Shown: positions 12,804 through 29,143, numbered from the stretch's first letter. The stretch: DNA of 64,000 nt from Syntrophorhabdaceae bacterium (GCA_963665295.1 OY762209.1:3328001-3392000); one strand, 5' to 3'. The notes: generated by a model not told the origin, from the letters alone. Numbers and translations: made by a program.

Positions 12804-14411
12804 TTACTGCTTGTCTCCCCACTTGCCGTATTTCTCTCTGAGAATCCTGTGGAGGATTTTGCCGGTAGGTGTTTTCGGCATCTCTTCGTCTTTGATGAAG
12901 GCGACATTCTTCGGGACCTTGAAGCCGGCTATCTTGCCTTTGCAGAAGGCTGAAATCTCTTCCGGTGTGGCGGTCTGTCCTTCGTGGAGGACGATAACGG
13001 CCTGCACCGTCTCGCCCCATTTCTCGTGAGGCACGCCGATGACTGCCACGTCTTTTACCTTGGGATGGGCGCCTAAGCAATTCTCAACCTCGGAAGGAAA
13101 GATATTTTCGCCGCCGGAGATAATCATGTTTGCCTTTCTGTCAACAAGGAAAAGATACCCTTCCTCATCCTTGTACCCCATGTCGCCTGCGCTGAAATAC
13201 TGTCCCTTCAGAGCAGCGGCTGTCTTTTCCTCATCTTTCCAATACCCGGTGAAGAGCTGTGGGCTTCTTGAGTACACCTCACCTACCACGTTCGGCTCGG
13301 TAATGAGCTTGCCTTCTTCATCATAAAGCTCCAGGAGATCGGTGCCGATGACCTCGCGTCCGCAGGAACCGAGCTTCGTGATCTGTTCTTCGGGTTTGAG
13401 GATCGTAACGCATCCCGCTTCCGTCGAGCCATAAGCCTCGTCAAGCTTTGAATTGGGGAACATATTGAGGATGCCCAGTTTCGTGTCTTTACGCGCAGGC
13501 GCCGAGGAGATAAGCAGTTTCTTGATACTGGTGAGATCGTATTTCTTCTTTACTTCGTCGGGAAGCGAAAGAAGCATGATGTAGTGAGTCGGTACCAGGG
13601 AAGTGAAGGTTACTTTGTGCTCTGAGAATGTCTTGAGGAGGTCTTCGGAATCGAAGCTTATCATGTTGTAGCACATGACCGTTCCGCCTACCCACGTTGC
13701 CACGAAGGAATAGTTGAGAGAGTTGATATGACAACACGGCATGACGAGGAGGTTCACGTCGTCGTGGCCGAAGAAATGGTCGTGAATCATGATGAAATAC
13801 TGAGACAACAGCGACCGGTGGCTCTTCATGACGCCTTTGGGCTTGCCGGTGGTGCCGCTGGTATACATGATGATCCAGATGTCCTCAGGATCAACAACTG
13901 TGGCAGGCTCTTCCGGGCTTGCCGCAGCAAGGGCATCCTCGTAGGTTACAAAACCGTCGTATTTGGGGTTGTCGAAGCCGAAAGCCATGTAATGGGTAAC
14001 GGTGGGGATATTCTTCTTCATACCGTTGACCATGTTTACCCATGGGAATTCCTTGCCGTCCTTCTTGTCGCTGCCGCCCTGGACGATAAAGACTTTACAT
14101 TCACTGTGATTGATATTGTATTCCATTTCCGGGGCAGACAGTCTGAACATGAGGGGAACGACAACGAAGCCGCCTTTTGCTGCGGCGCCGTACACGTCCA
14201 TCCACTCCACGCAGTTGTATGCGAGGACTGCAAAGCGGTCACCCTTCTTCATACCCATATCGGCGAGTGCGTTGGCAAGCCGGCATGTTCTCTCGTTCCA
14301 CTCTTTGAACGTGAATTCCTTGTAAAGGTCCTTGGCCCCGATCTTGTTAGGCCACTTGCTGGCGTTTACCCTTAGTGTTTCTTTTGCGGTCAACCAAAAA
14401 TCTGTCTTCAT
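12804..14411 (-). CDS. Acyl/aryl-CoA ligase (AMP-binding)
   Basis: YTSGTTGKPKG, YGSTE, GD, DRK..MIISGGENI, PKTPTGKI. Confidence 0.92.
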   Translation of the reverse strand: MKTDFWLTAKETLRVNASKWPNKIGAKDLYKEFTFKEWNERTCRLANALADMGMKKGDRFAVLAYNCVEWMDVYGAAAKGGFVVVPLMFRLSAPEMEYNINHSECKVFIVQGGSDKKDGKEFPWVNMVNGMKKNIPTVTHYMAFGFDNPKYDGFVTYEDALAAASPEEPATVVDPEDIWIIMYTSGTTGKPKGVMKSHRSLLSQYFIMIHDHFFGHDDVNLLVMPCCHINSLNYSFVATWVGGTVMCYNMISFDSEDLLKTFSEHKVTFTSLVPTHYIMLLSLPDEVKKKYDLTSIKKLLISSAPARKDTKLGILNMFPNSKLDEAYGSTEAGCVTILKPEEQITKLGSCGREVIGTDLLELYDEEGKLITEPNVVGEVYSRSPQLFTGYWKDEEKTAAALKGQYFSAGDMGYKDEEGYLFLVDRKANMIISGGENIFPSEVENCLGAHPKVKDVAVIGVPHEKWGETVQAVIVLHEGQTATPEEISAFCKGKIAGFKVPKNVAFIKDEEMPKTPTGKILHRILREKYGKWGDKQ

Positions 14412-14719
14412 AAAAAGACCTCCTCCATAAGATTTGTGTTATAACCCTCGGACCACGTTTTTCGGTTGTGTGATCCAAATCAACCCCCTGCCCGGGAAAA
14501 TCCCCCTTACGGGGGATCCCCCGAAGCGTTTTGCGACCGGATTACGATCATTTTGCACTCTGCCGTTGCGGTTTGTGCTACCCCCTGTAGCCCGTTTAGC
14601 GTGTGCCTGTCCTGAACGCAACCCAGCCCTTGAAGCCCGCTTCCTGTTTGTGTTACGACACAGCCTTCCTTACCGGGCTCTCCTTTAACCCGGTGAGACG
14701 CTGTCTTTCAACCCCATAA

Positions 14720-15484
14720 TTATTCCGCGAGAAGGGCCGCTCCCAGGGCAGCGGTAATCTGGGGCTCCTCAGAGACCAGAATACTTACACCCAGTTCCGA
14801 CTCCACGGCTTTGACAAGCCCCAGGTCCTTAGCCCCTCCTCCCGTTACCGCGCAATCCATGGTGAGCCCCAAACGGGTAACGAGATTTACGATCTTGGAG
14901 GCCATGGCCCTGTGGATGCCCTGAAGTATGTCTCCTGTGGAAGCCCCCTCGGCAACACGGGATACCGCCTCCGACTCAGCGAAGACCGCACACCCTGTGG
15001 TGAATTCCACCGGTTTGACCGCGGTGAGCGAAAGGGGACCGATATCTTCTATGTTGATGTGGAGTATGCGGGAAATGACCTGGAGGAACTTGCCGCTCCC
15101 CCCGGCGCACTTCTCGTTCATCACGAAATTCGTGACTTTCCCTGCATCGTTGATCCCGATTGCCTTGCTGAACTGCGCGCCTATGTCGATTACCGTCCGC
15201 ACCGTGGGGAACAGATAATGAACCCCCGCGGCATGAGAGGAAATGTCGGTGGCGGTCTGGTCGGCAAAGTCGACCATGGCCGCCCCATAACCCGTGGCAA
15301 CCGTGCGCGAGATGGCGTTCCGGTGAATACCGGCCTTCTTGAGGGCGTGTGCAACAACCAGATTGACTGCGTCCTTGTAGTTTCCCCCTGAAGGGATAAC
15401 CGCGTGGGACTTCACTATCCGGTTCTCGCAAATAACCGCCTTGGAATAACCTGAGCCTATATCGATACCGAGTACGTAAGTCAT
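14720..15484 (-). CDS. ASKHA-type ATP-dependent activase subunit (BcrD/BzdP/HgdC-like)
   Basis: GIDIGS, IDIGAQ, NEKCAGGSG, TGCAVFAESE. Confidence 0.88.
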   Translation of the reverse strand: MTYVLGIDIGSGYSKAVICENRIVKSHAVIPSGGNYKDAVNLVVAHALKKAGIHRNAISRTVATGYGAAMVDFADQTATDISSHAAGVHYLFPTVRTVIDIGAQFSKAIGINDAGKVTNFVMNEKCAGGSGKFLQVISRILHINIEDIGPLSLTAVKPVEFTTGCAVFAESEAVSRVAEGASTGDILQGIHRAMASKIVNLVTRLGLTMDCAVTGGGAKDLGLVKAVESELGVSILVSEEPQITAALGAALLAE

Positions 15485-15541
15485 CTGAAGTCCTTAGTTG
15501 GTGTCTGGCGGAGAGCCTCCGCTATCCGCAATTCCGGGCCT

Positions 15542-16384
15542 TCACGAGAAGAATCGCGCTTCCCGTAACCCTTGCTCGCTTCTCGTGAGCGCCTGCCCGC
15601 TTTGGACGGCGTCCTCGTATGCGCCCTTCCCGATCAGTGCCGCCCCGAGGGCCCCTGTAATGAGGGGCTCGGGCGGTACCAGTAACGGAAATCCAAACTT
15701 ATCTTCCAAAGCTTTGACCAAACCGATGTTCTTTGCCCCGCCGCCCGTGACGGCCACATCCTTTTCCACCTTCAGCTTTTTCACCATCGAATAGACGCGC
15801 GTCGCCACTGCGTCATGAATGCCTGCAACCAGACTGGCAAGGGGCTCGCCATTTGCGAGTTGGTTAATCACCTCGGCTTCGGCAAAAACCGTGCAGGTGC
15901 TGCTTACGGGACTTATCCGCTGGGCGGAAAGAGAGAGTGAGCCTAGGTCACGGAGCGGAACCCCCAGGGCGTCGGCGATCACTTCGAGAAATCGTCCGGT
16001 TCCGGCGGCGCATTTATCGTTCATGACAAAGTCGGTAACTTTGCCGTTCTTTATCTTAATACCCTTACTGTCCTGGCCTCCGACGTCGATCACGGTCCTG
16101 ACCGTCGGCAGCAGGCTGCTTAGACCTTTTGCGTGGCACGTAATCTCAGTAACCTGTCTGTCCGCGAAGGGAACGTTGATTCTGCCGTATCCCGTCGCGA
16201 TAACGTAGCTCAAGTCCTCAAATCTGAGCCCGGCCTGACCGAGGGCTTCCTCCATCACTTTGTTGGCGAGTTTCCGGTGTTCGGGCCCTGTCGGCCCTAT
16301 GAGCGAGGCTTCCAGGTGATCACTTATGATGATCACCTTGGTCATGGTTGAGCCGATGTCTATGCCGGCGAAATAGTGTTTCAT
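15542..16384 (-). CDS. ASKHA-type ATP-dependent activase subunit (BcrA/BzdQ/HgdC-like)
   Basis: GIDIGSTMTK, TGYGR, EITCHA, DVGGQDSK, MNDKCAAGTG, STCTVFAE. Confidence 0.9.
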   Translation of the reverse strand: MKHYFAGIDIGSTMTKVIIISDHLEASLIGPTGPEHRKLANKVMEEALGQAGLRFEDLSYVIATGYGRINVPFADRQVTEITCHAKGLSSLLPTVRTVIDVGGQDSKGIKIKNGKVTDFVMNDKCAAGTGRFLEVIADALGVPLRDLGSLSLSAQRISPVSSTCTVFAEAEVINQLANGEPLASLVAGIHDAVATRVYSMVKKLKVEKDVAVTGGGAKNIGLVKALEDKFGFPLLVPPEPLITGALGAALIGKGAYEDAVQSGQALTRSEQGLREARFFS

Positions 16385-16421
16385 TAGTCTTGCTCCTGTG
16401 CTCTATCAGGGCCCTGGGACC

Positions 16422-17756
16422 TTAGCCCCGTTTTTTCTTATAAGCTTCCAACGTCTCTATAAAGGCATCGATCCTGTTGTGGGTGTCCGCCTCGTTGTAA
16501 GAGCTGATATCGACAATATCGCCTTCCATGATCAAAACGGGTATTTCGCCGTATATCCTCTTGAGGACCGCTGCCTGCTGCATGATGCCCGCATGCCAGC
16601 TCCTGCAGGAGAACGCGGAATGGAATACCACGCCGTCGAGTTTGTAATCGTTGATATATTCAATTATACGCTCCACCTTGGGAGAGGACCCCGGCCGGTT
16701 TCGCGCCTTGTCATACCAGTGTGTCCAGAATCTTACCCACCGCCATGCGATGCGCTCAAGGGGATCGTTTGTCTTGGGAATGTCAAGGCGCCCGATCTTC
16801 TCGGCGTTACGGTAGGTTATTTCCGCGGGGAACACGGCGCCGTGGTCGTTGAAGTACTGGAAGTCTCCAAGGGCAAACCACGAGGGGAGTCCCGCACCCC
16901 AGAGAACACGGTACTTCTCGTTTGCAACCACGCCCTGCTTGTTTTCGTTCTTGAGTTTCAGTTCGTCATAGAGGTCTTTGTAGAAGTCGTACGCCTCCTG
17001 GGTGGCGAGGTTGAACGTGACCGGCACCATGGTGTTCATGGCGTCACCCGTGTCCATAGGGGTCGGTATCGCCTTGCGGAGTTCATATGCATCGATGAAC
17101 ATGTCCCAGGTCCGCTCCGTTAGGTCCACGAGAGCCGAAAGTTTGTCCCAGTCCATCTTCCTGCCCGTATGTTTCTCACAGAAACGGACAAGTTCGAGGA
17201 GTTCAGCCCTGCAATACTTTACGTAAATCGCTTCCTGCTCGTGGAAGTTGACGTTCGGGTCCCACTGGGGATAGTACATGTTTCCCACGAAAACGGGAAC
17301 GTCCTGGAGGTAGTGTTGGGTTGCCTGAGGCCATTTGAACCGGGGATCGCACAACTGCTGGGCGCTCCCTATAATCATGTCGGGCCGTGCCATACCGCCC
17401 CAGGGAGCTCCCGGAGGGGTGGCGCCTTCCAGTTCTTCGCGCCACATATCGAAGCCTATGGTACAGGTGGCGTACGTACAGAGGGAGCGTGAAAAGTTCT
17501 CTGCTTCCGCCTTCTGCAGGTACTTCTCTGCATCACGTTTTGCCGCGCACACGCCCGCAAAGCTTTCGCCCCAGGCCGGCACTATGTCCATGGCCCGCAT
17601 GACTTCATCCTGACCGTCGTTTATGTAGGCATACGCTACTGTTTTTCCTTCCTCTTTCGCCTTTAATGTAACCGATAAATTCCCGCGTACAAACTTTGCA
17701 ATGCTTGCTGCTGCTTTTGTTGCGAGCGATCTTGGTTGTTTTTTCTCTTCAGCCAT
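16422..17756 (-). CDS. 2-hydroxyacyl-CoA dehydratase / benzoyl-CoA reductase catalytic subunit (BcrB/BzdO/HgdA-like)
   Basis: FSRSLCTY, GGMARPD...CD, DGVVFH..SCR, EGD.VD....RIDAFIE. Confidence 0.85.
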   Translation of the reverse strand: MAEEKKQPRSLATKAAASIAKFVRGNLSVTLKAKEEGKTVAYAYINDGQDEVMRAMDIVPAWGESFAGVCAAKRDAEKYLQKAEAENFSRSLCTYATCTIGFDMWREELEGATPPGAPWGGMARPDMIIGSAQQLCDPRFKWPQATQHYLQDVPVFVGNMYYPQWDPNVNFHEQEAIYVKYCRAELLELVRFCEKHTGRKMDWDKLSALVDLTERTWDMFIDAYELRKAIPTPMDTGDAMNTMVPVTFNLATQEAYDFYKDLYDELKLKNENKQGVVANEKYRVLWGAGLPSWFALGDFQYFNDHGAVFPAEITYRNAEKIGRLDIPKTNDPLERIAWRWVRFWTHWYDKARNRPGSSPKVERIIEYINDYKLDGVVFHSAFSCRSWHAGIMQQAAVLKRIYGEIPVLIMEGDIVDISSYNEADTHNRIDAFIETLEAYKKKRG

Positions 17757-17769
17757 GTCATTATCCTCC

Positions 17770-18927
17770 CTATGCGATCATTTCCAGGAAAGCTTCAATC
17801 CTGGTTTTCATCCGGGCCAGAGTGGAGGTGGAATATTCATCCTCCAGATAGAGCACCGATGCTCCTTGAGATTCGACGAAAGTCTTGATCGCCGGAACTT
17901 CGAAGCCGTAGGGGTCGCAGTATTTGTAGATGAAGAGAATGACGCCGTCTACCTTGAAGTCTCCTATGTAATTTTTCAAATGGCCGTACCGTGATTCCAG
18001 GATTTCCTGGTACGTGTCGCCCGCGCCTACGAAGGTCGTGGGTATCTTCAGTTTTGTGAGGTATCTCTCCGCGATGCCCTGGACAGGGTCGGGTGTTGCA
18101 TCGACATCATTCCAGTACATTTTGCTTCCAATCGATATGTCATCCATAACGAGATATGCGCCCGTGCCCTCGATTGTCTGGATGACCGCCAGATCGTCGA
18201 TCTGGTCGCCCAGGAGCATAATCCGTTTCCCTTTTGCGCCTGCAGGTGCGGGTCTCGCTTTTACCTCTTCCGTGACGCTCCGGATGAGAGCACTTGACTC
18301 GTCAACGGGGAGACTCATGGCGGCCACGAGGACCTCCATCATCTCGGAACCCGAGATAAGGGGTGGATTTGACTGTCTCAAAGCATAAAGGTCTCTCATG
18401 AGACGCCTGTTCTCATTGTGGGCCTTCACCGCCTCTGTGATCATCGCATCCGTTATCTTTTTGCCGGTAAATTTTTCCAAAGTGCCGATGAATATCCGGA
18501 GAATGTCTTTCATGAACTCTACCGAAGGCGCATCGGTGACGTGAGGTACGTTCAGGAAGTGCCAATACGGCAACTTCAAGGTGTCGGCCCACACATCATC
18601 GGTTCTGTCGATGCTGTCACATTGGTGAGGCAGCACCATGCCGTCAAGGAAGTCATATTTTCCCTTTACGGCTGCATCGAAGACGTTACGCACAAAGGGA
18701 CAGACTATGGTTTCCATATAGGCGTCGCCTTTTGTGATGGCTTCAGACACATTGCCCTTCAAACGAAGAGGCACTATACCCGCAGCCGTAATGATCTCCA
18801 CCGGACCCAGGGCGGTCAGATAGCCGATCACCTGTTTCCCGGAGGCTTTCAACTCCCGTGCCCTTGATCCGTAATCCGTGTAGTACTTCTTGGCCTTTGC
18901 TAAACCGCTTTCCGCTTGTTGTGTCAT
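17770..18927 (-). CDS. 2-hydroxyacyl-CoA dehydratase / benzoyl-CoA reductase catalytic subunit (BcrC/BzdN/HgdB-like)
   Basis: PVEIITAAG, CPFVRN, HQCD, YKYCDP, KTRIEAFLEM. Confidence 0.85.
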   Translation of the reverse strand: MTQQAESGLAKAKKYYTDYGSRARELKASGKQVIGYLTALGPVEIITAAGIVPLRLKGNVSEAITKGDAYMETIVCPFVRNVFDAAVKGKYDFLDGMVLPHQCDSIDRTDDVWADTLKLPYWHFLNVPHVTDAPSVEFMKDILRIFIGTLEKFTGKKITDAMITEAVKAHNENRRLMRDLYALRQSNPPLISGSEMMEVLVAAMSLPVDESSALIRSVTEEVKARPAPAGAKGKRIMLLGDQIDDLAVIQTIEGTGAYLVMDDISIGSKMYWNDVDATPDPVQGIAERYLTKLKIPTTFVGAGDTYQEILESRYGHLKNYIGDFKVDGVILFIYKYCDPYGFEVPAIKTFVESQGASVLYLEDEYSTSTLARMKTRIEAFLEMIA

Positions 18928-19007
18928 GGTTAACTCCCCTTATGTACCCCCAGATTCATAACTGATGATTGGGGGGTAATGTGATGCGTATTGCCGCGCC
19001 CAAAGAA

Positions 19008-19074
19008 GTTTTGTGTAGAAAACACTGTTTTATACCCGAAAACAATCTTACTTAAGGAGGGATAAGTTTGTCAA
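19008..19074 (-). promoter_or_regulatory. sigma70 promoter of the reductase/dehydratase operon with downstream tandem operator
   Basis: Minus-strand TTGACA (19069-74), 18 nt, TAAGAT (19045-50); GTTTT-N-AAAAC boxes at 19008-19023 and 19027-19043. Confidence 0.6.
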
Positions 19075-19337
19075 CAAAAATCTGCGCGAAAAATGTAAAA
19101 AAACACGGCAATAATTATTTTGTCAAAAAGAATTCGGCGAAAGCGAAAAACCATGTTTTATAACAGAAAAGGGGTCATGATTCCAGTTTTTTTCAGAGAC
19201 CGTAATGTTTTAAAAAAAGGATGATTGAGTACACGAAAAACTTGGCGATGGGCGACAATAGGCGTTTATGAAAAATGGTCTGTATACGAAAGGTCCGGAC
19301 CCCTGCTCCGGGGAGCCGTTCGGGTTATTTTTTTCTG

Positions 19338-19403
19338 TTGACAAACAAAAATCGTTCCGATAGTATCATTTTGATATACAAAACATAGTTTACCAGACAA
19401 AAC
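19338..19403 (+). promoter_or_regulatory. sigma70 promoter of iorAB with downstream tandem operator
   Basis: TTGACA (19338-43), 17 nt, TAGTAT (19361-66); palindrome TTTTGATATACAAAA at 19369-83 followed by GTTTACCAGACAAAAC. Confidence 0.65.
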
Positions 19404-19625
19404 CATGGAGGCGGTGGGGGCCAATGCTTTTCCTCCATGAGGGGGCAGATCCATCCCTGGAATAGGAACGTATTTATTACGGTCGGGCTCAGGAATTCGG
19501 CACCGGGGGTTTGCCGATTCCTGATTCCGGGGAGGAAATAGAACTGGATGAAAGGAGGGTGATTCTCAGTTTCAGGGGACGGGAAGACAGTGCTTTTAAG
19601 AGGTTCTAAGCCGAAAGGAGGAAGG

Positions 19626-21446
19626 ATGAAGAAAATAATGCAGGGGAATGAGGCAATTGCCAGGGGAGCCTGGGAGGCCGGCGTGAATGCGGCCTGTGCC
19701 TATCCCGGAACGCCGAGCAGTGAGATTCTTGCAGAGATCAAAGATTACAAGGAGATTTACACGGAATGGTCCACTAACGAGAAGGTGGCTTTGGAAGTTG
19801 CCCACGGCGCCTCTCTTGCGGGAGGAAGGGCGATGGCGTGCATGAAGCATGTCGGACTCAACGTCGCCTCCGACCCCCTTATGACCATTTCCTACACGGG
19901 CGTGAAAGGCGGGCTTGTCGTGGTGGTAGCAGATGACCCCGGTCAGCACAGTTCACAGAATGAACAGGATAGCCGTCACTGGACCCGCTTTGGGAAAGTG
20001 CCCATGCTCGAGCCGGCGGACGCTCAGGAATGCAAGGATTTTACGAAGATCGCCTTTGATATCAGCGAGAAATTCGACACTCCCGTATTGCTTCGGAGCG
20101 AAACGCGAGTATCCCATTGCGATTCTCCGGTGAAAGAGGAAGAGAGAAAGGAGTCGACCATTCCCAAAGGACTTTCCCGCGAGGAGACGCCGAGACATGT
20201 TATGGTGCCCATGTATTCGAGGGTCAGCCGCGTCAAGGTGGAAGAGAGAATCGGAAAGCTGTCCGACTATAATGATACGGAATTCCCATACAACTCGATG
20301 GAGATCAACGATCCCTCGATCGGATTTATCTCGTCCGGCGCCTCGTATCTGTACACTAAAGAAGTTTTTCCGGAGTACTCGTTCCTGAAGTTGGGGATGA
20401 TCTGGCCGCTTCCGAAAAAGATGATTGCCGACTTCTTCAAGAAGGTGAAAAAGGTGGTGATCGTGGAAGAGCTTGACCCCTTCTTTGAAACAGAGATCAA
20501 GGCCATGGGTTTTAAGATATGGCATGGCAAAGACCTCCTGCCGAGTGTAAGCGAGTTGTCACCGAGCATCATCGAGAAATCGCTCAAGAAGGCGGTGCAG
20601 GGTGTGGCCTATAAGGAGCCCAAGGTAAGGGTAAAACAGGAGGACCTTCCCAGGAGACCGCCGAACCTTTGCGCAGGCTGCTCACACAGACCGCTTTTTT
20701 ATGCCCTTAAGAAACTGGGCGTTTTCGTTTTTGGAGACATCGGCTGTTATTCACTGGCTGTTGCGCCGCCCCTGTCGGCCATGCATGCGTCGACGTGTAT
20801 GGGCGCCGGTGTAGGAGGAGCTTACGGTGCGGGCAAGATTCTCGGCAAAGAAGGGCTCGGCAAGATATGCTGTGTCCTGGGCGATTCGACGTTCCTCCAT
20901 TCGGGACTTACCCCTCTTATGGATGCCGTATATAACAAGGGATACTCCACCACCATCATTCTCGACAATAGGATCACCGCAATGACGGGTCAGCAGGAGC
21001 ATCCGGGAACAGGGTTTACTATTCGGGGTGAGCCCACATCCATGGTGGACTACGAACAGTTGGTGAAAGCTGCGGGGGTGAAACATATAAGAAAGGTCAA
21101 CCCCTATGACATTAAAGAGACCATGGCCATAATCAAAGAGGAAATGTCAAGGGACGACGCGTCGGTCATCATCACGGAGAACAGCCCCTGCATGATGCTG
21201 CGCAGGGCCAACCCCCTGGAGAAATTCGAGAACCCCTTCTACGTGGTCAATAGCGACAAGTGCCGCGGCTGCAAGGTCTGTCTCGAAATCGGCTGCCCTG
21301 CCATAAGCTGGCAGGAAGGTGCGGGCACCACAGCGGACGGCCACAAGCGGAAAGGGACTGTTTATATTAACGTGGACCAGTGCGTCGGTTGCGGAGTATG
21401 CACCGAGGTATGTAAATTCGAGTCCATTCAGCCGGGCACGAAGTGA
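19626..21446 (+). CDS. iorA: Indolepyruvate/arylpyruvate:ferredoxin oxidoreductase alpha subunit
   Basis: GNEAIARGA, YPGTPSSE, KHVGLNVA.D, SSQNEQD, LCAGCSHR, GDIGCY, two C-terminal 4Fe-4S motifs. Confidence 0.95.
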   Translation: MKKIMQGNEAIARGAWEAGVNAACAYPGTPSSEILAEIKDYKEIYTEWSTNEKVALEVAHGASLAGGRAMACMKHVGLNVASDPLMTISYTGVKGGLVVVVADDPGQHSSQNEQDSRHWTRFGKVPMLEPADAQECKDFTKIAFDISEKFDTPVLLRSETRVSHCDSPVKEEERKESTIPKGLSREETPRHVMVPMYSRVSRVKVEERIGKLSDYNDTEFPYNSMEINDPSIGFISSGASYLYTKEVFPEYSFLKLGMIWPLPKKMIADFFKKVKKVVIVEELDPFFETEIKAMGFKIWHGKDLLPSVSELSPSIIEKSLKKAVQGVAYKEPKVRVKQEDLPRRPPNLCAGCSHRPLFYALKKLGVFVFGDIGCYSLAVAPPLSAMHASTCMGAGVGGAYGAGKILGKEGLGKICCVLGDSTFLHSGLTPLMDAVYNKGYSTTIILDNRITAMTGQQEHPGTGFTIRGEPTSMVDYEQLVKAAGVKHIRKVNPYDIKETMAIIKEEMSRDDASVIITENSPCMMLRRANPLEKFENPFYVVNSDKCRGCKVCLEIGCPAISWQEGAGTTADGHKRKGTVYINVDQCVGCGVCTEVCKFESIQPGTK

Positions 21447-21451
21447 GGTGG

Positions 21452-22048
21452 ATGATGACAGATAATAATAAAGTAACCAATATATTTCTCTCCGGCGTAG
21501 GCGGCCAGGGTACGATTCTCGCCAGTAATATCCTCGCTGAGGTTTTTCTGAAGGCAGGGTACGATGTGAAAAAGAGTGAAGTCCACGGCATGGCCCAGAG
21601 AGGCGGGGACGTAACCACCCACTTCAGGTTCGGCAAGAAGGTATACTCGCCCCTCATCAAGTACGGCGATGTCGACTTTCTCCTCTCCTTCGAGCTTCTG
21701 GAAGCCCTGAGATACATCAACTGGGTAAAGCCGGAAGGCAAGATCATCATCAACAGGCAGGAGATCTATCCTCCCGGCGTAAACCTGGGAACGGCGAAGT
21801 ATCCTGACGATGTGGAAAAGACATTCAAGAAGTTTTTTAAGGAAAACGTTACTGTCCTGAACGGACAGGAAATGGCGCGGAAGCTCGGGAATACCCAGGC
21901 TGCAAACGTCATTCTTGTAGGCGCCTTTTCGAACTTCTTCCCCGAAATCAAGGAAGAACAGTTCATCGATGCCATCAAGACGCTTATGAAACCGAAGCTT
22001 CACGAACTGAACATAAAAGCATTTTATGAAGGAAGGGCGGCCCTCTGA
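21452..22048 (+). CDS. iorB: Indolepyruvate:ferredoxin oxidoreductase beta subunit
   Basis: GVGGQGTIL, SEVHGMAQRGG, N..AF..G. Confidence 0.95.
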   Translation: MMTDNNKVTNIFLSGVGGQGTILASNILAEVFLKAGYDVKKSEVHGMAQRGGDVTTHFRFGKKVYSPLIKYGDVDFLLSFELLEALRYINWVKPEGKIIINRQEIYPPGVNLGTAKYPDDVEKTFKKFFKENVTVLNGQEMARKLGNTQAANVILVGAFSNFFPEIKEEQFIDAIKTLMKPKLHELNIKAFYEGRAAL

Positions 22049-22069
22049 AAAGGGGCGGCCGGATTTCCC

Positions 22070-22135
22070 TTGACAGTAATGGAAGGGGAAAGTAGGATAG
22101 ATATGATATACAGAAAACGGTTGTGTAGACAAAAC
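22070..22135 (+). promoter_or_regulatory. sigma70 promoter of the IclR gene with downstream tandem operator
   Basis: TTGACA (22070-75), 17 nt, TAGGAT (22093-98); then ATGATATACAGAAAAC GGTTGTGTAGACAAAAC. Confidence 0.6.
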
Positions 22136-22161
22136 ACAACGGCGGGGTCACGGGCAGAGAA

Positions 22162-22980
22162 ATGATTGATGAGGATAAGAAAAAGGTTGAGTACACGTCA
22201 CTGGTCCCTGCCGTGGATCAGGCGTCAAGGATTCTCATCTGCCTGGCAAAGACACCGTCCTTCAAAATGAATCTCACGGACATCTGCAAGAATGTGGGCA
22301 TACACAAAAGCAAGGGGTATGCAATCCTGAAGACCCTTTTGAATTTCAAGTTTGTGGAGAGGGACGATGAAGGGAAAACCTACACTCTGGGGCCCGGTCT
22401 GATCTCCCTGTCGCGAAGGGTTCTTGACAATCTGGAGTACAGGGACAAAGCAGGACCATTTCTGGAAAGACTGGCCCGACAGACGAATGCAACCGCCACC
22501 TTCGGCATAATAAACGCAAGAAATTTCATTGTCATAGCAAAGCGCGAAGGGAGCAGGGAAGTCTTTTTGACCATAAGGGTGGGATACCGGCTCAGCATCA
22601 CCCATGGGGCGGTGGGGAAAGCCATCGTCTCATTTCTGCCGGAAGACGAACGTGAAGAGATATTGAAGCAGGAGCGTTTGCTCTTTCACGGAGATCCGTC
22701 GCGACTGGACCGCGGCAGACTGACGGCTGAGTTCGAGCGGTGCCGGAAGATAGGATACGCGACGGACCTGGGGGAGATGTTTCCCGGTCTCAACGCCATT
22801 GCCGCACCGGTTTTTGATCACGAGGGAAGACCTACGGGGGCATTGCTCGTCACCGGGGTCTTCCCCAAATCTTTGGCCCATGAGTATGGCTCGAGGATAG
22901 CCGCGTGTGCGAGGGATTTTTCGGTCACCCTCGGGGCGGACGTTGATGAAATTTACAGGATAGACAAGCACAAGGATTAA
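22162..22980 (+). CDS. IclR family transcriptional regulator
   Basis: VPAVDQA..IL HTH, Y.LGPGL, GAVGKA, GYA.D..E...G..AIAAPVFD. Confidence 0.93.
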   Translation: MIDEDKKKVEYTSLVPAVDQASRILICLAKTPSFKMNLTDICKNVGIHKSKGYAILKTLLNFKFVERDDEGKTYTLGPGLISLSRRVLDNLEYRDKAGPFLERLARQTNATATFGIINARNFIVIAKREGSREVFLTIRVGYRLSITHGAVGKAIVSFLPEDEREEILKQERLLFHGDPSRLDRGRLTAEFERCRKIGYATDLGEMFPGLNAIAAPVFDHEGRPTGALLVTGVFPKSLAHEYGSRIAACARDFSVTLGADVDEIYRIDKHKD

Positions 22981-23143
22981 GAAATAAAGGGGGCCGTCCT
23001 CATTGATGCCTTGAAGCGGCGCAATCGGTTGAGTGCGCCGTGCGTTGATATGGGGTCGGTATGAAGGAAATGAGTTTCCTTCTGATTTCCTATTATTGCA
23101 CGCGGAGCTTCATGGCTTCGCGAAATAAAAGGGGGTATAGAGC

Positions 23144-24727
23144 ATGAGCGATGTGAATATCCATATAGGCGAAATACTGGCCAGAAACGCCAGAATGTAT
23201 CCCGATGATATTGCCCTTATAGAAAGAGTGCCCGCCGAGAAGAAGAGAACCACCATCACGTGGCACGAATTCGACGTGAAGGTAAACCAGTTTGCAAATG
23301 TTCTCATTTCCAAGGGTATAAAAAAAGGTGACAAGGTCATGCACCTCATGAACAACTCCATTGACTGGCTCATTGCCTACTTTGGCGTGGTTCGCACAGG
23401 CGCGTGGATTGTGCCGCTTAACTTCCGTTTTACGAGTTCAGATATTAAATACTGTGCCGACGTGGCTGAACCCGACATCGTGGTGTTCGGCGAGGAATTT
23501 ACGGACAGGATAGAGCCCATAAAAGGCCAGTTGTCGACTGCCCGGGGCTTTATTTGCGTGGGGAAGGAGATTCCTGCCTTCGCTGAGTCCTTTGCCGCGC
23601 TCCTTGAGGGGGCACCCATCGATCAGCCGAAGGTTGACATCTTTTTCAGCGACCCCTGCGGACTCTATTTTACGTCCGGCACCACGGGTCAGCCAAAACC
23701 GATCCTTCTCACTCATTTGAACATGCAGAATGCGTGTATCACCGAAAATATGCACCACTACCAGACGAAGAAGGACCTGTTTATCCTTATGCCGCCCCTC
23801 TATCATACAGGGGCGAAGATGCACTGGTTCGGCAGTTTCATCGTAGGCGGACCGGCTGTGATACTCAAGGGCGTCTCTCCGGAGTGGACCCTGGAGGCGG
23901 TCAGCGAAGAGGGGGGCACGATTGTATGGCTCCTCGTTCCGTGGGCGCAGGATATACTGCTGAAACTGGACAGCGGCGAATTAAAACTGTCCGACTACAA
24001 CCTGTCTCAGTGGCGGCTTATGCACATAGGCGCCCAACCGGTGCCGCCGTCACTCATAAAGCACTGGAAGAAGTATTTCCCTGATATGCAATACGACACC
24101 ACGTATGGTTTGAGCGAATCCACCGGGCCGAACACGGTGCACCTGGGTATCGAAAATACCCATAAAGTCGGTGCGATCGGGCGTCCGGGTTTTAACTGGG
24201 AAACGCGGATTGTAGATGAAACCGGAAAGGATGTCGCTCCAGGGCAGTCCGGTGAGCTTATTGTCCGCGGCAACGGCGTGATGCGGGAGTATTACAAGAA
24301 CCCGGAAGCCACGGCGCGGGCCCTGATCGACGGTTGGCTTTACACCGGCGACATGGTGAGGCAGGACGAGGACGGGTTCATCTTCATTGTAGACCGGAAG
24401 AAGGACGTCATCATCTCGGGCGGGGAGAATGTTTTCCCTGTTGAAGTTGAAGATTATCTTCACGCGAACCCGGCGGTCAAGGATGTGGCCGCTATCGGCG
24501 TTCCGGACGAGCGACTCGGCGAGATCGTCGCAGTCGTGATTGACGTGGTGCCCGGCAAGACCTTGTCCGAACAGGAAGTGCTCGACTTTTGTCAGAAACT
24601 TCCGAAATACAAGAGGCCGCGCAAGGTCTTTTTTGGCGAGGTCCCGCGGAACCCTACGGGGAAAATAGAAAAAGTGAAACTCAGGAAACAATATATAGGC
24701 ATGGCCGAAGCGTTCACAATTAAGTGA
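23144..24727 (+). CDS. Acyl/aryl-CoA ligase (AMP-binding)
   Basis: FTSGTTGQPK, YGLSE, YTGD, DRKKDVIISGGENV, PRNPTGKI. Confidence 0.92.
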   Translation: MSDVNIHIGEILARNARMYPDDIALIERVPAEKKRTTITWHEFDVKVNQFANVLISKGIKKGDKVMHLMNNSIDWLIAYFGVVRTGAWIVPLNFRFTSSDIKYCADVAEPDIVVFGEEFTDRIEPIKGQLSTARGFICVGKEIPAFAESFAALLEGAPIDQPKVDIFFSDPCGLYFTSGTTGQPKPILLTHLNMQNACITENMHHYQTKKDLFILMPPLYHTGAKMHWFGSFIVGGPAVILKGVSPEWTLEAVSEEGGTIVWLLVPWAQDILLKLDSGELKLSDYNLSQWRLMHIGAQPVPPSLIKHWKKYFPDMQYDTTYGLSESTGPNTVHLGIENTHKVGAIGRPGFNWETRIVDETGKDVAPGQSGELIVRGNGVMREYYKNPEATARALIDGWLYTGDMVRQDEDGFIFIVDRKKDVIISGGENVFPVEVEDYLHANPAVKDVAAIGVPDERLGEIVAVVIDVVPGKTLSEQEVLDFCQKLPKYKRPRKVFFGEVPRNPTGKIEKVKLRKQYIGMAEAFTIK

Positions 24728-24852
24728 GTGGGAGGAAATATGCCCGTATGTTTTGTATACGGTAGGTTTTTCCTTGAGGTTGGACGAACCTTCTGGTTTA
24801 ATACATATGGGAGTATTTTGCAGCAACACAATAATATATTTTAGGGGGCGTT

Positions 24853-25872
24853 ATGAACAAAAAAGCAGCATTGGTATCGGTTCTAAGTGTCTTGGTTCTG
24901 TTCTTCTGCGTTGCCGTTTTTCCTACGGTTTCGTCGGCACAGAAGGCGATCGCGCTCAACTACTCAAACTTCTTCCCTGCTCCACACAAAGTAAGCATTA
25001 CATCCGAGCAGTGGTGCAAGGAGATAGAGAAGAGAACGAACGGTAAGGTAAAGTTCGCCTATTTCCCCGGCGGTACGCTTACCCCGGCAGCACAGACCTA
25101 TGACAACGTAGTAAAAGGGATTGCAGACGTCGGTTTCAGTGCCCTTGCATACACAAGGGGCAAATTCCCGCTTATGGAAGCTATAGACCTTCCACTGGGA
25201 TACAGGAGCGGCACACAGGCAACAAACCTGATCAACGCATTCTATTCAAAATTCAAACCGAAAGAACTTGACGACGTAAAGGTCCTTTATTTCAGTGCTC
25301 ATGGACCCGGCATCGTCCACTCCAAGAAGGCAATAGCAAAACTTGAAGACATGAAGGGTAAGAAGATACGGGCCACCGGCCTTGCCGCAAAGATAGTGGC
25401 AGCCCTCGGGGCAGCCCCTGTGGGCGCCACCATGCCTGAGACCTATGATGCGCTCCGCACGGGCGTTGTCGATGGTTCAATGGCTCCGTATGAAGCATTG
25501 AAGGGTTGGAAATGGGGCGAGGTCGTGAATTTCACGACCCAGGATTACGGCGCAGCATACACCACCGGTTTCTTCGTCGTCATGAACAAGGCAAAATGGA
25601 ACAGCCTTCCTCCCGATGTCCAGAAGGTATTCGACGAGGTAAGCAAAGAATGGATCGTGAGACAGGGTAAGGTATGGGATGAGATCGATAAGGAAGGACA
25701 TGAGTTTGCCAAGTCCAAGGGAATGAAGGACATTGCTCTTTCAAAAGAGGAAGATGCACGTTGGGCCGCAAAAGTAAGACCTCTCCTGGACGACTATGTA
25801 AAGTCGGCGAAAGGGAAGGGGCTTCCGGGCGACGAAGCATTGAAGTTCTGCCTCGATTTCCTGAAGCACTAG
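24853..25872 (+). CDS. dctP: TRAP transporter substrate-binding protein DctP
   Basis: Signal peptide, IEKRTNGKV, YPGG-like, DMKGKKIR, ETYDALRTGVVDG, MNKAKWNSLP. Confidence 0.9.
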   Translation: MNKKAALVSVLSVLVLFFCVAVFPTVSSAQKAIALNYSNFFPAPHKVSITSEQWCKEIEKRTNGKVKFAYFPGGTLTPAAQTYDNVVKGIADVGFSALAYTRGKFPLMEAIDLPLGYRSGTQATNLINAFYSKFKPKELDDVKVLYFSAHGPGIVHSKKAIAKLEDMKGKKIRATGLAAKIVAALGAAPVGATMPETYDALRTGVVDGSMAPYEALKGWKWGEVVNFTTQDYGAAYTTGFFVVMNKAKWNSLPPDVQKVFDEVSKEWIVRQGKVWDEIDKEGHEFAKSKGMKDIALSKEEDARWAAKVRPLLDDYVKSAKGKGLPGDEALKFCLDFLKH

Positions 25873-25940: not shown

Positions 25941-25978
25941 GGAGGGTCCATCGCTTCAGATGGACCCTCCCTTTTTTT
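25941..25978 (+). terminator. Rho-independent terminator after dctP
   Basis: GGAGGGTCCATC-gcttca-GATGGACCCTCC followed by a T run. Confidence 0.8.
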
Positions 25979-26330: not shown

Positions 26331-26364
26331 ATCTTCTACCCCGCGTGGTTACAATAGGCAAGAG

Positions 26365-26510
26365 CAGTTCTCAGGGCGGGGTGAGATTCCCCACCGGCGG
26401 TGATTTCGCGATAGCGCGAATAAGCCCGCGAGCGCCTGTTTAAGCGAACAGGGTCAGCAGACCCGGTGAGATTCCGGGGCCGACGGTAATAGTCCGGATG
26501 GGAGAGAACC
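26365..26510 (+). ncRNA. FMN riboswitch (RFN element)
   Basis: TCAGGGCGGGGTGAGATTCCCCACCGGCGG...AGCCCGCGAGCG...GCAGACCCGGTGAGATTCCGGGGCCGACGGTAATAGTCCGGATGGGAGAGAA; upstream of ribB; TTGACA/TACAAT promoter at 26326-26355; downstream AGCCCTGA complementary to the 5' stem. Confidence 0.97.
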
Positions 26511-26690
26511 ATAATATCCGTTTTATTCGATATGGCGGTTTCGATTTCTTTCTTTTTCTCTGTAAGCCCTGACGATAATTAAATTTGCTGCCGGTACCGG
26601 TTCGCCGTATGGAGCGGGTTACAGGAGAGTGCGTTTCCCCGCCCGTGAGTGATGGCATGAAGGTAACCGGCGCGCAGAAAAGGAGTCTCC

Positions 26691-27344
26691 ATGAATCAAT
26701 CGATGCTGTCACAATTCGGTGAATCAAAGGAACGCGTGGAAAGGGCTTTGGCCGCCCTGAGGAAAGGCAATGGGGTCCTGATCGTCGATGACGAGGACCG
26801 AGAGAATGAAGGGGATATCATCTATCCGGCGGAGACCATTACCGTGCCCCAAATGGCCTTGCTTATCAGGGAGTGCAGCGGGATTGTCTGCCTTTGCCTC
26901 ACGGACGAGAAGATCCGCGAACTGGGCTTGCCTGCAATGACGGATCACAATACAAACAGACATGAAACGGCCTTCACTGTCTCTATCGAGGCCCGGGAAG
27001 GGGTGACGACGGGAGTCTCCGCTTCCGACCGGGTTCAGACCATTCGCGCCGCCATACGAGAGGGGAGCGGTCCGGAAGACCTTTGTTGCCCGGGCCACGT
27101 ATTTCCGCTACGCGCCCGGCCGGGCGGAGTACTGTCCCGGCGCGGCCACACAGAGGGGACTGTCGATCTCATGCGTCTTGCGGGGTATACTCCCGCCGGA
27201 GTTCTCTGCGAGTTGACAAACCCCGACGGGACAATGGCCCGTCTGACAGAGGTGGTTCGTTTTGCGGCGACCCACGATATGACTGTCCTGACCATTGAGG
27301 ATATTGCCCGGTACAGGATGGGCGCCCTTGACAGAACAGGGTGA
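26691..27344 (+). CDS. ribB: 3,4-dihydroxy-2-butanone-4-phosphate synthase
   Basis: [40 protein letters not shown]. Confidence 0.97.
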
Positions 27345-27760: not shown

Positions 27761-29143
27761 ATGAACGATCATCAATCATTCACCTTTGAAAAGGATTCCC
27801 TGCGCATTCTGGCCTCCGCTCTGGGGAGGCTCGAAGCAGGCTTTACGGAATTGCCGCCGGTAGACAAGGTATTGGCGGATACCGCGTCAATGGAAAAGGT
27901 CCTGTCTGAAGTTGCGGACCGGCTTCACGACAACTATCCGTATTTTCATCCCCTTTATGCAGGCCAGATGCTTAAACCGCCTCATCCGGTGGCCCGGACG
28001 GCCTATGCCCTTGCCATGTGGATAAATCCCAATAATCACGCCCTCGATGGAGGCAAGGCCAGCTCCCGGATGGAAAAAGAGGCGACTGCGGAAATCGCCC
28101 GTATGTTCGGTTGGGAGACTCACCTGGGCCACCTTACGAGCGCGGGAACGACTGCGAACCTGGAGGCATTGTGGGCCGCGGGGCAGCTCAATCCCGGCTC
28201 CGTGGTTGTGGCCTCCGAACAGGCTCATTACACTCATCAACGTATCAGCGGCGTATTGAAACTCGATTTTGAATCGATCCCATGTGACCGTCGGAGCAGG
28301 CTCGATGTGGAGGCACTGGAACAGCGTCTCCGGAAAGGCGGCGTGGGGACTGTGGTTGCGACTATGGGAACCACTGCCACAGGCGCTGTCGACCCCCTGC
28401 CCGAACTTCTTGCATTGCGGGAACGCTACGGGTTCAGGCTTCACGCCGACGCGGCGTATGGGGGATACTTCCTGCTGGCCGATAATCTCGACCCGTCAAC
28501 ACGGGCGAGTTACGAACGAATGAATGAGGTTGATTCTATCGTAATCGATCCCCACAAACATGGTCTCCAACCTTATGGATGCGGATGCGTGCTTTTTCGC
28601 GATCCTTCCGTGGGACGGTTCTATAAACACGATTCCCCTTACACCTATTTCAGTTCCAGGGAACTCCACCTGGGCGAGATCAGTCTCGAATGCTCCCGGC
28701 CCGGCGCTGCAGCAGTGGCGCTTTGGGCGACCCAGCGGTTGCTGCCCCTGGTGAAGGGCGGGGAATTCGCCGGAAGGTTGGAAAAATCGCGTGCCGCCGC
28801 CCTCGCACTTCATGAGAGGCTGTCAGCGGACAAGAGGGTCGTGACATCGTTCCGGCCGGAACTGGACATTATTGCCTGGTCGCCCCGGGCAAGGCGGATA
28901 AGTGAGTCGTCGGAGATGGCAAGGGCCATCTTTTCCGGGGCTGAAAAGCGTCATCTCTTTCTCGCCCTCGCTGAATTGCCCGTTGATTTCTTCGATTTTG
29001 CAAGGGCGGGCGTGGAGCGCGACAGGGACACGGTCACGTGTCTGAGGTCCGTACTTATGAAACCCGAGCATCTTGAATGGGTCGACCGCATATGGGAGAT
29101 CCTCGATGCGGCGACGGATGAGGCGATGGAGTCAATCGGGTAA
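27761..29143 (+). CDS. Group II PLP-dependent amino acid decarboxylase
   Basis: GT.ANL.AL, AHYT, MGTT.TGAVD, HADAAYGG, SIVIDPHK, LECSR. Confidence 0.88.
   Translation: MNDHQSFTFEKDSLRILASALGRLEAGFTELPPVDKVLADTASMEKVLSEVADRLHDNYPYFHPLYAGQMLKPPHPVARTAYALAMWINPNNHALDGGKASSRMEKEATAEIARMFGWETHLGHLTSAGTTANLEALWAAGQLNPGSVVVASEQAHYTHQRISGVLKLDFESIPCDRRSRLDVEALEQRLRKGGVGTVVATMGTTATGAVDPLPELLALRERYGFRLHADAAYGGYFLLADNLDPSTRASYERMNEVDSIVIDPHKHGLQPYGCGCVLFRDPSVGRFYKHDSPYTYFSSRELHLGEISLECSRPGAAAVALWATQRLLPLVKGGEFAGRLEKSRAAALALHERLSADKRVVTSFRPELDIIAWSPRARRISESSEMARAIFSGAEKRHLFLALAELPVDFFDFARAGVERDRDTVTCLRSVLMKPEHLEWVDRIWEILDAATDEAMESIG

Follow-up and report, generated by a model that had tools for sequence, protein, structure and literature searches.

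The BCR/HAD family of radical enzymes comprises the class I benzoyl-CoA reductases (BCRs), which act on the aromatic ring, and the 2-hydroxyacyl-CoA dehydratases (HADs). Here, we describe a ten-gene locus encoding a member of this family at positions 12804..25872 of a 64,000-nt stretch of DNA (the window) from a Syntrophorhabdaceae bacterium (GCA_963665295.1 OY762209.1:3328001-3392000), whose genome is one 5.5-Mb contig. The ten genes likely encode an oxygen-sensitive radical enzyme together with partners that remodel the side chain of an aromatic acid and not its ring. On balance, the four-subunit enzyme is probably an aryllactyl-CoA dehydratase rather than a ring reductase, a reading favoured because its neighbours belong to 2-oxo-acid, 2-hydroxy-acid, and enoyl-CoA chemistry and the ring step is supplied elsewhere in the genome. 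Phenylacetate and related aryl acids accumulate in anaerobic digesters, and the locus would give strict anaerobes a so-far unexplained path from phenylacetate-type compounds to benzoate breakdown, for which it supplies a full candidate set of enzymes, operator, and regulator.

The clostridial dehydratases HadBC with HadI (PDB 3O3M) and FldBC with FldI of Clostridium sporogenes have in common with the window enzyme an alpha/beta dimer, three cluster cysteines per subunit, a catalytic glutamate, and an ATP-dependent activator. They are likewise linked to a 2-hydroxy-acid dehydrogenase, a 2-oxo-acid oxidoreductase, and activation by CoA. The window enzyme differs in its identity of only ~20% (scoring 93 against the 750 bits required by the HadB model), in two unequal activator genes in place of a homodimer, and in its AMP-forming ligases and GlcDF-type dehydrogenase; its product likely goes onward to benzoyl-CoA instead of being reduced and excreted. 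Phenylalanine catabolism in Archaeoglobus fulgidus, described by Parthasarathy et al. in 2013, reportedly joins a phenyllactyl-CoA dehydratase and an arylpyruvate:ferredoxin oxidoreductase in one non-fermentative anaerobe, although its enzymes are said to be archaeal and to include an ADP-forming ligase and a CoA transferase, unlike those of the window.

Two ring reductases are also close. BzdNOPQ (PDB 8S02), as described in PMC11971306, has the same N-O-ATPase-ATPase gene order and equivalents of residues Glu65, Cys95, Tyr97, Cys128, and Cys380, and is the best sequence match in the PDB; however, three ligands of the [8Fe-9S] cluster (Cys36, Cys263, and Cys293) are missing from the window beta subunit, arginine replaces His131, the alpha subunit falls in a separate clade, and no dch/had/oah genes accompany it. 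The 3-methylbenzoyl-CoA reductase (MBR) MbdONPQ (PDB 9G87, 9GAI) shares the three-cysteine beta subunit, the lack of His131, two ATPases, a similar first-strand motif, and the fold (TM score 0.82), but identity is again ~20%, ring-fission genes are found at no locus, and MBR is absent from our tree.

A similar gene inventory is that of the Desulfococcus multivorans clusters Dmul_24730-24900, which PMC5109826 assigns to phenylacetate and phenylpyruvate and reports as formed specifically on them. These clusters have in common with the window IorAB (iorA3B3), a 2-oxo-acid reductase (putatively acting on phenylpyruvate), a dehydratase predicted to act on phenyllactate and its activator, two ligases, a tripartite ATP-independent periplasmic (TRAP) transporter, and beta-oxidation genes (Hbd5, hydratase, thiolase), and a class II BCR lies next door. 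They differ from the window in two-component control and in having all genes in one place. The conversion to benzoyl-CoA in strict anaerobes without Pad enzymes, as in D. multivorans, which has neither padB nor padEFGHI, is called 'unclear' by the authors of PMC5109826.

The Catalytic Dimer and Its ATPase Pair

Both catalytic subunits match PF06050 and have the fold, the catalytic glutamate, and the three cysteines per cubane of the BCR/HAD family. In the alpha subunit, Glu64, Cys93, Tyr95, Cys136, and Cys384 are invariant, as are Cys70, Cys98, and Arg139 (the residue at the His131 position of BzdO), with Glu64 and Cys93/136/384 present in 81/81 aligned sequences; in the beta subunit, Cys76/103 are kept in 73/73 and Cys337 in 72/73. 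The three cluster cysteines of beta correspond to a single cubane, and the BZD type is excluded because only 3/6 of the double-cubane cysteines of the N subunit are retained. Ring reduction is not thereby excluded, since MbdN has the same three cysteines. The single cubane per subunit that is found in HADs is hence not diagnostic, and the cysteine count was given up as a proof that the enzyme is a dehydratase.

All four BCR/HAD subunits score below every curated Bcr, Bzd, Had, or double-cubane cluster protein (DCCP) cut-off. Scores against cut-offs were 173/453.8, 99.8/448.6, and 186.9 and 157.6/380.2 bits for the BzdNOPQ models TIGR03190/03191/03192; 80.1/486.55 (BcrB), 157.5/421.15 (BcrC), and 126.7/312.85 (BcrD) among the BcrABCD models TIGR02259/02260/02261/02263; 93.2/750 and 136.5/700 bits for HadB and HadC; and 194.5 and 61.1 of 350 for the DCCP model NF040772. 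Likewise, no representative (n=110) reaches a cut-off, BcrB is above its cut-off in 0/121 genomes, and a search of plasmids gave matches below 27% only. HadB is the best, if weak, model for 57/60 distant relatives with any NCBIfam match. The alpha model (pLDDT 94.6) has TM scores of 0.82 to BzdO, 0.82 to MbdO, and 0.80 to HadB; these are nearly equal, and fold comparison was discarded as a means of separating reductase from dehydratase.

A phylogenetic comparison with named references had been proposed in the first-pass annotation. As run for alpha, it holds 118 rows, with HadB, FldB, BcrB, and MbdO absent and most odd-numbered and all short representatives omitted, and places alpha in a clade of uncharacterised proteins (support 1.00), apart from the BzdO type and from an HgdA-like protein of a Fusobacterium record. 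Its nearest named relatives are Syntrophorhabdus proteins (86-88%). The dimer belongs to an uncharacterised BCR/HAD subfamily. At least one public record annotates it as 'benzoyl-CoA reductase subunit B', so bcr-based surveys such as PMC10936416 may count it as ring-reduction potential.

Both ATPase subunits exceed the TIGR00241 cut-off and keep both cluster-cysteine motifs. Act1 has the canonical motifs GGQDSK and MNDKCAAGTG; in act2, GGQD is changed to GAQF, with loss of the aspartate, and the protein scores below the BzdQ, BcrA, and BcrD cut-offs. The two are 45% identical, so that the genes specify two different ATPase subunits as in class I BCRs, and the orthologues of each, drawn from four families, form a supported group. 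An origin of this pair independent of BzdP/Q was considered and dropped: FastTree placed the two together at 0.998 (62 rows), but IQ-TREE with LG+C20 (24 rows) did not resolve the question, and an approximately unbiased test gave p = 0.41. The host genome holds two further dimers of the subfamily (69-79%), which stand with ligases and without ATPase genes, as expected if one catalytic activator serves several dimers. The enzyme would work like a HAD without belonging to the characterised HADs, whose activator rule and cut-offs it fails, and is built like a class I BCR while failing the class I cut-offs and gene context. If it is a dehydratase, its two unequal ATPases would make class I BCR modules harder to set apart from the activators of HADs.

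Several other genes touch on this family. Many related loci (numbered L) carry, ahead of their beta gene, open reading frames (ORFs) of ~100 aa with an 'IE(I/V)FGC' motif (L048:7652-7990, L055:8066-8479, L060:8114-8395, L033:8291-8590, L001:6227-6535), of which the one scanned had no Pfam match; in the intergenic region of the window, no ORF of this type was listed at >=90 aa. A dimer nearer to HadB stands alone in the host genome (G000:C1:2643624-2645974), and a single ATPase gene lies there beside a glutaryl-CoA dehydrogenase-like gene (G000:C1:4552307-4553086).

Gene Neighbourhoods and Distribution

Neighbourhoods were counted in the best 80 of 137 relatives' loci, 2.8-21 kb long. The conserved unit is beta-alpha-act1-act2, with its genes in 73, 80, 59, and 52 of the 80 loci, respectively, and two ATPase genes in the same 52 in place of the homodimeric single-gene activator of HADs. 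Other genes are found less often: lig1 in 15, iorA, glcF, and dctP in 7 each, glcD in 5, and iclR in 1. The dienoyl-CoA hydratase, dehydrogenase, and hydrolase genes (dch/had/oah) to which class I BCRs are linked occur in 0/80 loci, versus three genuine bzdNOPQ control loci of the same phylum (L111, L112, L114), all with dch/had adjacent and two (L111, L112) with oah. Together with the failed Bcr, Bzd, and Had cut-offs, the missing BZD double cubane, and the co-occurrence of class II genes, this counts against the ATP-costly class I ring reductase that the first-pass annotation had put forward; dehydration, which it had named as an alternative, fits better. It was right that the stretch has no downstream dch/had/oah genes, the genome copies lying 1.16 Mb away. 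The indolepyruvate/arylpyruvate:ferredoxin oxidoreductase (IOR) adjoins the dimer in only 7/80 loci, so that a role as its dedicated ferredoxin supply does not hold as a conserved design.

The neighbours that recur point to CoA activation and to 2-hydroxy-acid dehydrogenases and racemases. Two loci (L061, L073) read as one run of iorAB-ligase-glcDF-lig1-beta-alpha, and in a third (L070) glcDF lies upstream of iorAB. Some Acidobacteriota copies (L012, L024) have LarA-family racemases and CoA transferases of family III as neighbours, the racemase matches being nearest to LarAH10 and malate racemases and all under cut-off.

In the host family, which is central among methanogenic degraders of aromatic compounds, the dimer is near-core, and it has also spread to Acidobacteriota. 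Of 64 family genomes, 58 have the dimer, 58 iorA, 62 glcD, and 59 lig1, and 48 have all four. In 49/58 genomes holding both, lig1 and glcD are no more than 5 kb apart; a distance of at most 12 kb separates lig1 from iorA in 14/55, lig1 from the dimer in 11/53, and iorA from the dimer in 6/52. Within the family, co-occurrence cannot discriminate because all of these genes are near-core; overall, IOR, ligases, and dimer co-occur non-randomly. Two genomes of another genus keep lig1-iorA-iorB-iclR-lig2 with no adjoining dimer. A sister clade (53-55%) is present in 9/9 genomes of another family (f12), where a lig2 orthologue (72-75%) is adjacent in 5/9 loci and the copies adjoin a Liv-type ABC transporter.

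Some arrangements were noted in passing. In the deep sister loci L156, L157, L158, and partly L159, a B12 acyl-CoA mutase stands with the dimer, mostly along with MeaB, thiolase, short-chain dehydrogenase/reductase, and the same type of two-ATPase pair, which would constitute an undescribed mutase-plus-radical-enzyme cassette. A corrinoid protein is encoded near the dimer in 6/80 loci (L008, L012, L014, L019, L024, L071), joined in L008 and L019 by a URO-D-family methyltransferase, and O-demethylation of methoxylated aryl acids is a possible role. In Syntrophorhabdus aromaticivorans UI (L003:8642-11332), the alpha gene comes immediately after an insertion sequence and the beta gene is located at the opposite end of the scaffold, either a split operon or an assembly break.

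Ring Reduction Elsewhere in the Genome

The host genome contains two class II bamB-C-D-E-F-G-H-like clusters (G000:C1:4700000-4712100 and 5383000-5394500), named by gene make-up and by orthologues adjoining oah/had/dch, and its had-oah-dch genes all exceed their cut-offs. Ring reduction thus looks to be covered elsewhere in the genome. Between the clusters, the bamE-F-G-H-like ORFs are equal in length and N-terminal sequence, and the bamB-like genes are 69% identical. All five Acidobacteriota carriers tested have oah and a bamB-like gene (67-81%), which brings class II genes to all 6 carriers tested, and all five have iorA at 74-76%, intact in 4 and in pieces in 1. There is nothing new about class I genes in a strict anaerobe: Bzd-type genes are already present in the phylum, where 4/151 genomes pass the BzdO cut-off, and the emphasis put on such an enzyme at first reading is not supported.

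Oxidoreductase, Ligases, and Binding Protein

IorA scores 677.8 bits against the equivalog cut-off of 650.9 (TIGR03336) and IorB passes that of PRK06853, while TIGR03334 remains below its cut-off (176.3/205.8). A second iorB, 1.93 Mb away, encodes exactly the same protein. The two genes agree at 587/594 nt (window 21455-22048; G000:C1:5282886-5283479) and the partner IorA proteins at 73.6%, which likely reflects recent gene conversion retaining one iorB for two IorA alpha subunits.

No NCBIfam cut-off is reached by lig1, which has four paralogues in the host genome (71-78%). Among PDB matches, both ligases are nearest to the fatty-acyl-CoA synthetases FadD13 and FadD5. In other families, the lig2 orthologue adjoins iorAB or PaaK-like genes. 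The folds closest to the DctP binding protein are titled 'specific for aromatic acid ligands' or have bound cinnamate, coumarate, ferulate, caffeate, or 4-hydroxyphenylacetate. Among the matches listed at E 2.5e-31 to 7.6e-27, every title that names a ligand class names an aromatic acid, and other binders begin at 2.6e-22; identity to the nearest solved relatives is just 26-37%, and the titles of the two closest entries, as listed, show no ligand. The solved proteins 4NAP, 4PGN, and 4PGP are reported to have indole-acid ligands. DctP appears to group with aromatic-acid binders, which together with the IOR score supports the substrate class proposed at first reading.

Promoters, Operator, and Regulon

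At three sigma70-like promoters, an 18-bp palindrome occurs in tandem with 19-bp spacing, starting 1 base past the -10 hexamer. This shared operator is new here. The palindrome consensus, derived from other genomes, is TGTTCTGTATACAGAACA. In a genome-wide scan with a matrix trained on these three tandems, they were the only such tandems; the matrices are partly circular, the first having been trained on window sites and the second on sites chosen with the first. As a control, shuffled sequences (n=200) were scored on regions of other genomes: the operator precedes orthologous units in 5/7 of these, where 0-3/200 shuffles score as high, and no site was found in the other two (L072, L075). It lies ahead of lig1-iorAB-iclR-lig2 in L160 and L161, between the divergent iorA and beta genes in L007 and L004, and as a tandem directly upstream of a 53% iclR relative of another family in L166.

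In the host genome, the operator also precedes the glcD-glcF-lig1-paralogue operon (4.97 Mb) and the second iorA (5.28 Mb); none was found at the beta-oxidation operon (0.11 Mb). The window IclR is likely the cognate repressor, as suggested by putative binding sites conserved at repressing positions, and iclR is likely autoregulated because a tandem operator follows its own predicted promoter. The motif is of the IclR type, and the regulon is real but lineage-limited. The locus had been described as a self-contained regulon: the shared tandem operator upholds the single regulon, but it is not self-contained, because the operator also precedes the distant glcD-glcF-ligase operon and the second iorAB and because dctQM is absent.

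Proposed Pathway

We infer every substrate and reaction of the following scheme from what was observed: genes, cofactor ligands, operators, neighbourhoods, and the presence of class II and dch/had/oah genes. DctP would capture an aromatic C2/C3 acid, with import by dctQM encoded elsewhere. IorAB would interconvert arylacetyl-CoA and arylpyruvate. The exchange between arylpyruvate and aryllactate would fall to a 2-hydroxy-acid dehydrogenase of the GlcD/GlcF type, whose genes lie 1.6 Mb from the locus and are preceded by the shared operator. Lig1 would form aryllactyl-CoA and lig2 arylacetyl-CoA. The ATPase pair would inject one low-potential electron and the dimer would remove the 2-hydroxyl group to give a cinnamoyl-type CoA ester, which beta-oxidation, by an hbd-ech-thiolase operon at 0.11 Mb that ends with a lig1 paralogue, would convert to aroyl-CoA and acetyl-CoA. 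A class II Bam reductase would then take the ring. The lower half of this route has already been suggested in print, since PMC13416013, which also names FldABC, proposes phenyllactyl-CoA to cinnamoyl-CoA to benzoyl-CoA for benzene in a sulfate reducer.

The IOR may run oxidatively, in disproportionation of arylpyruvate, or reductively, in carboxylation of arylacetate. In the latter case, which we hold as a tentative possibility, arylacetates would be degraded in Syntrophorhabdaceae and other strict anaerobes by chain elongation instead of alpha-oxidation: reverse IOR carboxylation and reduction would be followed by re-activation of the aryllactate by the second ligase, dehydration by the enzyme with the asymmetric two-gene ATPase, and beta-oxidation to benzoyl-CoA and acetyl-CoA. 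This route needs two ligases and would account for the presence of both ligases and of IOR alongside the dehydratase; the gene sets of the host and D. multivorans, both with two ligases, together fit it. If true, it puts a CO2-fixing step that consumes electrons in place of a high-potential oxidation that releases them, and would close the gap in D. multivorans and Desulfobacula toluolica, neither of which has PadB or PadEFGHI. A forward-running IOR, with arylpyruvate or aryllactate undergoing disproportionation, fits equally well. The literature searched gave no account of the subfamily or of reverse-IOR carboxylation in phenylacetate catabolism, though prior proposals may exist in subscription papers.

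Alternative Explanations

A number of observations weigh against dehydration of an aryllactyl-CoA. Known HAD activators are homodimers (PMC11574389), and here two unequal ATPases follow the N-O-ATPase-ATPase order of class I BCRs; the best PDB sequence matches are BzdO and BzdN and not HadB/C, the three-cysteine beta is common to the true ring reductase MbdN, and HadB Ser37 aligns to an invariant isoleucine of alpha, as in MbdO. Lig1 and lig2 have no characterised close relative, and PDB matches do not settle their substrates. The deep sisters of the dimer (32-34%) adjoin B12 mutases, and in a further family (f14) lig2 flanks a different, HadB-nearer dimer (L162, L163), with lig3 and dctPQM too in L162. 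The operator is found upstream of just 5/68 beta-subunit genes (0.9 expected), and its motif is generic for IclR paralogues, standing ahead of three other iclR-type genes in the host genome. The D. multivorans dehydratase (PMC5109826) is one 416-aa subunit with one activator, and it was likened by description, not by sequence. S. aromaticivorans UI has the alpha and beta genes, yet it does not grow on phenylacetate (PMC9516798), which also counts against the carboxylation route, although alpha stands behind an insertion sequence there and beta is distant.

Ring-reductase features would be explained if the enzyme were a class I-type, ATP-stoichiometric reductase for substituted aroyl-CoA beyond the class II enzyme, fed by IOR-reduced ferredoxin. 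The two unequal ATPase genes are the remaining argument for it, act2 with its GAQF being degenerate much like BzdP with GAEE, and act2 and BzdP lie on one side of a branch in the IQ-TREE tree, unsupported at 17/18. Retention of the BzdO Glu65, Cys95/128/380, and Tyr97 equivalents, the top PDB matches to BzdO and MbdO, the three cysteines of MbdN, and the possession of oah by carriers are likewise consistent with it. We nevertheless consider it unlikely: dch/had/oah are in 0/80 loci versus the 3 bzd controls that have them, class II is present in all 6 carriers tested, the 2-hydroxy-acid dehydrogenase, racemase, and IOR neighbours play no part in ring reduction, the paralogous dimers lack ATPases, arginine replaces His131, and the cut-offs are failed.

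The remaining alternatives keep a HAD-like reaction and change the substrate or the direction. In one of them, the enzyme would dehydrate aliphatic or branched 2-hydroxyacyl-CoA esters that arise in amino-acid fermentation, the IOR would be of broad specificity, and the link to aromatics would be incidental. This reading would suit ligases nearest FadD13/FadD5, the Liv-type transporter beside the f12 copies, the B12 mutases of the deep sisters, and the sub-cut-off LarA matches nearest LarAH10 and malate racemases; it is quite improbable in view of an IOR over its equivalog cut-off, a DctP in the aromatic-acid group, carriers in two phyla that have the benzoyl-CoA pathway, and lig2 orthologues beside PaaK-like genes. 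Least probable of all is a reverse or biosynthetic use, in which phenylpropanoid-CoA would gain water at C2 and undergo alpha-oxidation to arylacetyl-CoA, or imported arylacetates or cinnamates would be turned into the arylpyruvates needed for aromatic amino acids. Dehydration to the conjugated cinnamoyl-CoA is strongly favoured, arylacetyl-CoA is a dead end without a Pad pathway, and aminotransferase genes are absent from the recurrent neighbours, although a near-core dimer even in 1.8-2.4 Mb genomes suits housekeeping, the DctP neighbours bind hydroxycinnamates, and the corrinoid/methyltransferase genes by 6/80 loci hint at methoxylated lignin acids.

Organisation of the Locus and Adjacent Features

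The ten ORFs are all intact, and the named families and two divergent arms (Table 1) are as given in the first-pass annotation. In the minus arm, the beta and alpha subunit genes are followed by act1, act2, and lig1; the plus arm consists of iorA, iorB, iclR, lig2, and dctP, followed by a terminator-like hairpin. No dctQ or dctM is found beside dctP.

Table 1. Features of the locus, in window positions.
Feature	Positions	Strand	Remarks
lig1, AMP-forming CoA ligase, 535 aa	12804..14411	-	PF00501/PF13193; candidate aryllactate (2-hydroxy-acid) CoA ligase
act2, second ATPase/activator subunit, 254 aa	14720..15484	-	TIGR00241 225.9 vs cut-off 125.4
act1, canonical BcrAD/BadFG ATPase/activator subunit, 280 aa	15542..16384	-	TIGR00241 271.1 vs cut-off 125.4
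Catalytic alpha subunit, BCR/HAD family, 444 aa, BzdO/MbdO/HadB-like	16422..17756	-	HGD-D family
Beta subunit, 385 aa, BzdN/MbdN/HadC-like	17770..18927	-	HGD-D family; cluster Cys 76, 103, 337
Tandem operator, two 18-bp palindromes 19 bp apart	19007..19043	.	1 base past -10 box of minus-arm promoter
Predicted sigma70-like promoter, dehydratase arm, TTGACA-18-TAAGAT	19045..19074	-	
Predicted sigma70-like promoter, iorAB, TTGACA-17-TAGTAT	19338..19366	+	
Tandem operator	19368..19404	.	1 base past iorAB -10 box
iorA, indolepyruvate/arylpyruvate:ferredoxin oxidoreductase alpha	19626..21446	+	TIGR03336; ATG at 19626, ribosome-binding site GAAAGGAGG ahead
iorB	21443..22048	+	PRK06853.1-5 240.3 vs cut-off 230
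Predicted iclR promoter (22070-22098), 1 base, tandem operator (22100-22136)	22070..22136	+	
IclR-family regulator, 272 aa	22162..22980	+	PF09339 + PF01614; candidate cognate repressor
lig2, AMP-forming CoA ligase, 527 aa	23144..24727	+	Candidate arylacetate CoA ligase
Single weaker operator-like site ahead of dctP	24749..24766	.	
DctP TRAP binding protein, 339 aa	24853..25872	+	NF037995; aromatic-acid-binding group
Intrinsic terminator-like hairpin ending plus arm	25941..25970	+	

Beyond the hairpin, and unrelated to the locus, a flavin mononucleotide riboswitch precedes ribB (window 26363-27344). Just past ribB lies a pyridoxal-phosphate decarboxylase gene of the MfnA/tyrosine-decarboxylase kind (window 27761-29143), a 70.7% orthologue of which stands directly 3' of the alpha gene in L025 (5566-6957), the sole such locus found. 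A lone, unrelated 331-aa ORF of the HGD-D family (window 5903-6898; PF06050, 116 bits) lies between ksgA-like and tldD-like genes. A DDE_Tnp_1 transposase occurs twice (window 41554-42915 and 52584-53945), the copies matching in N-terminus and length, with a DDE_3 transposase between them (43505-44587).

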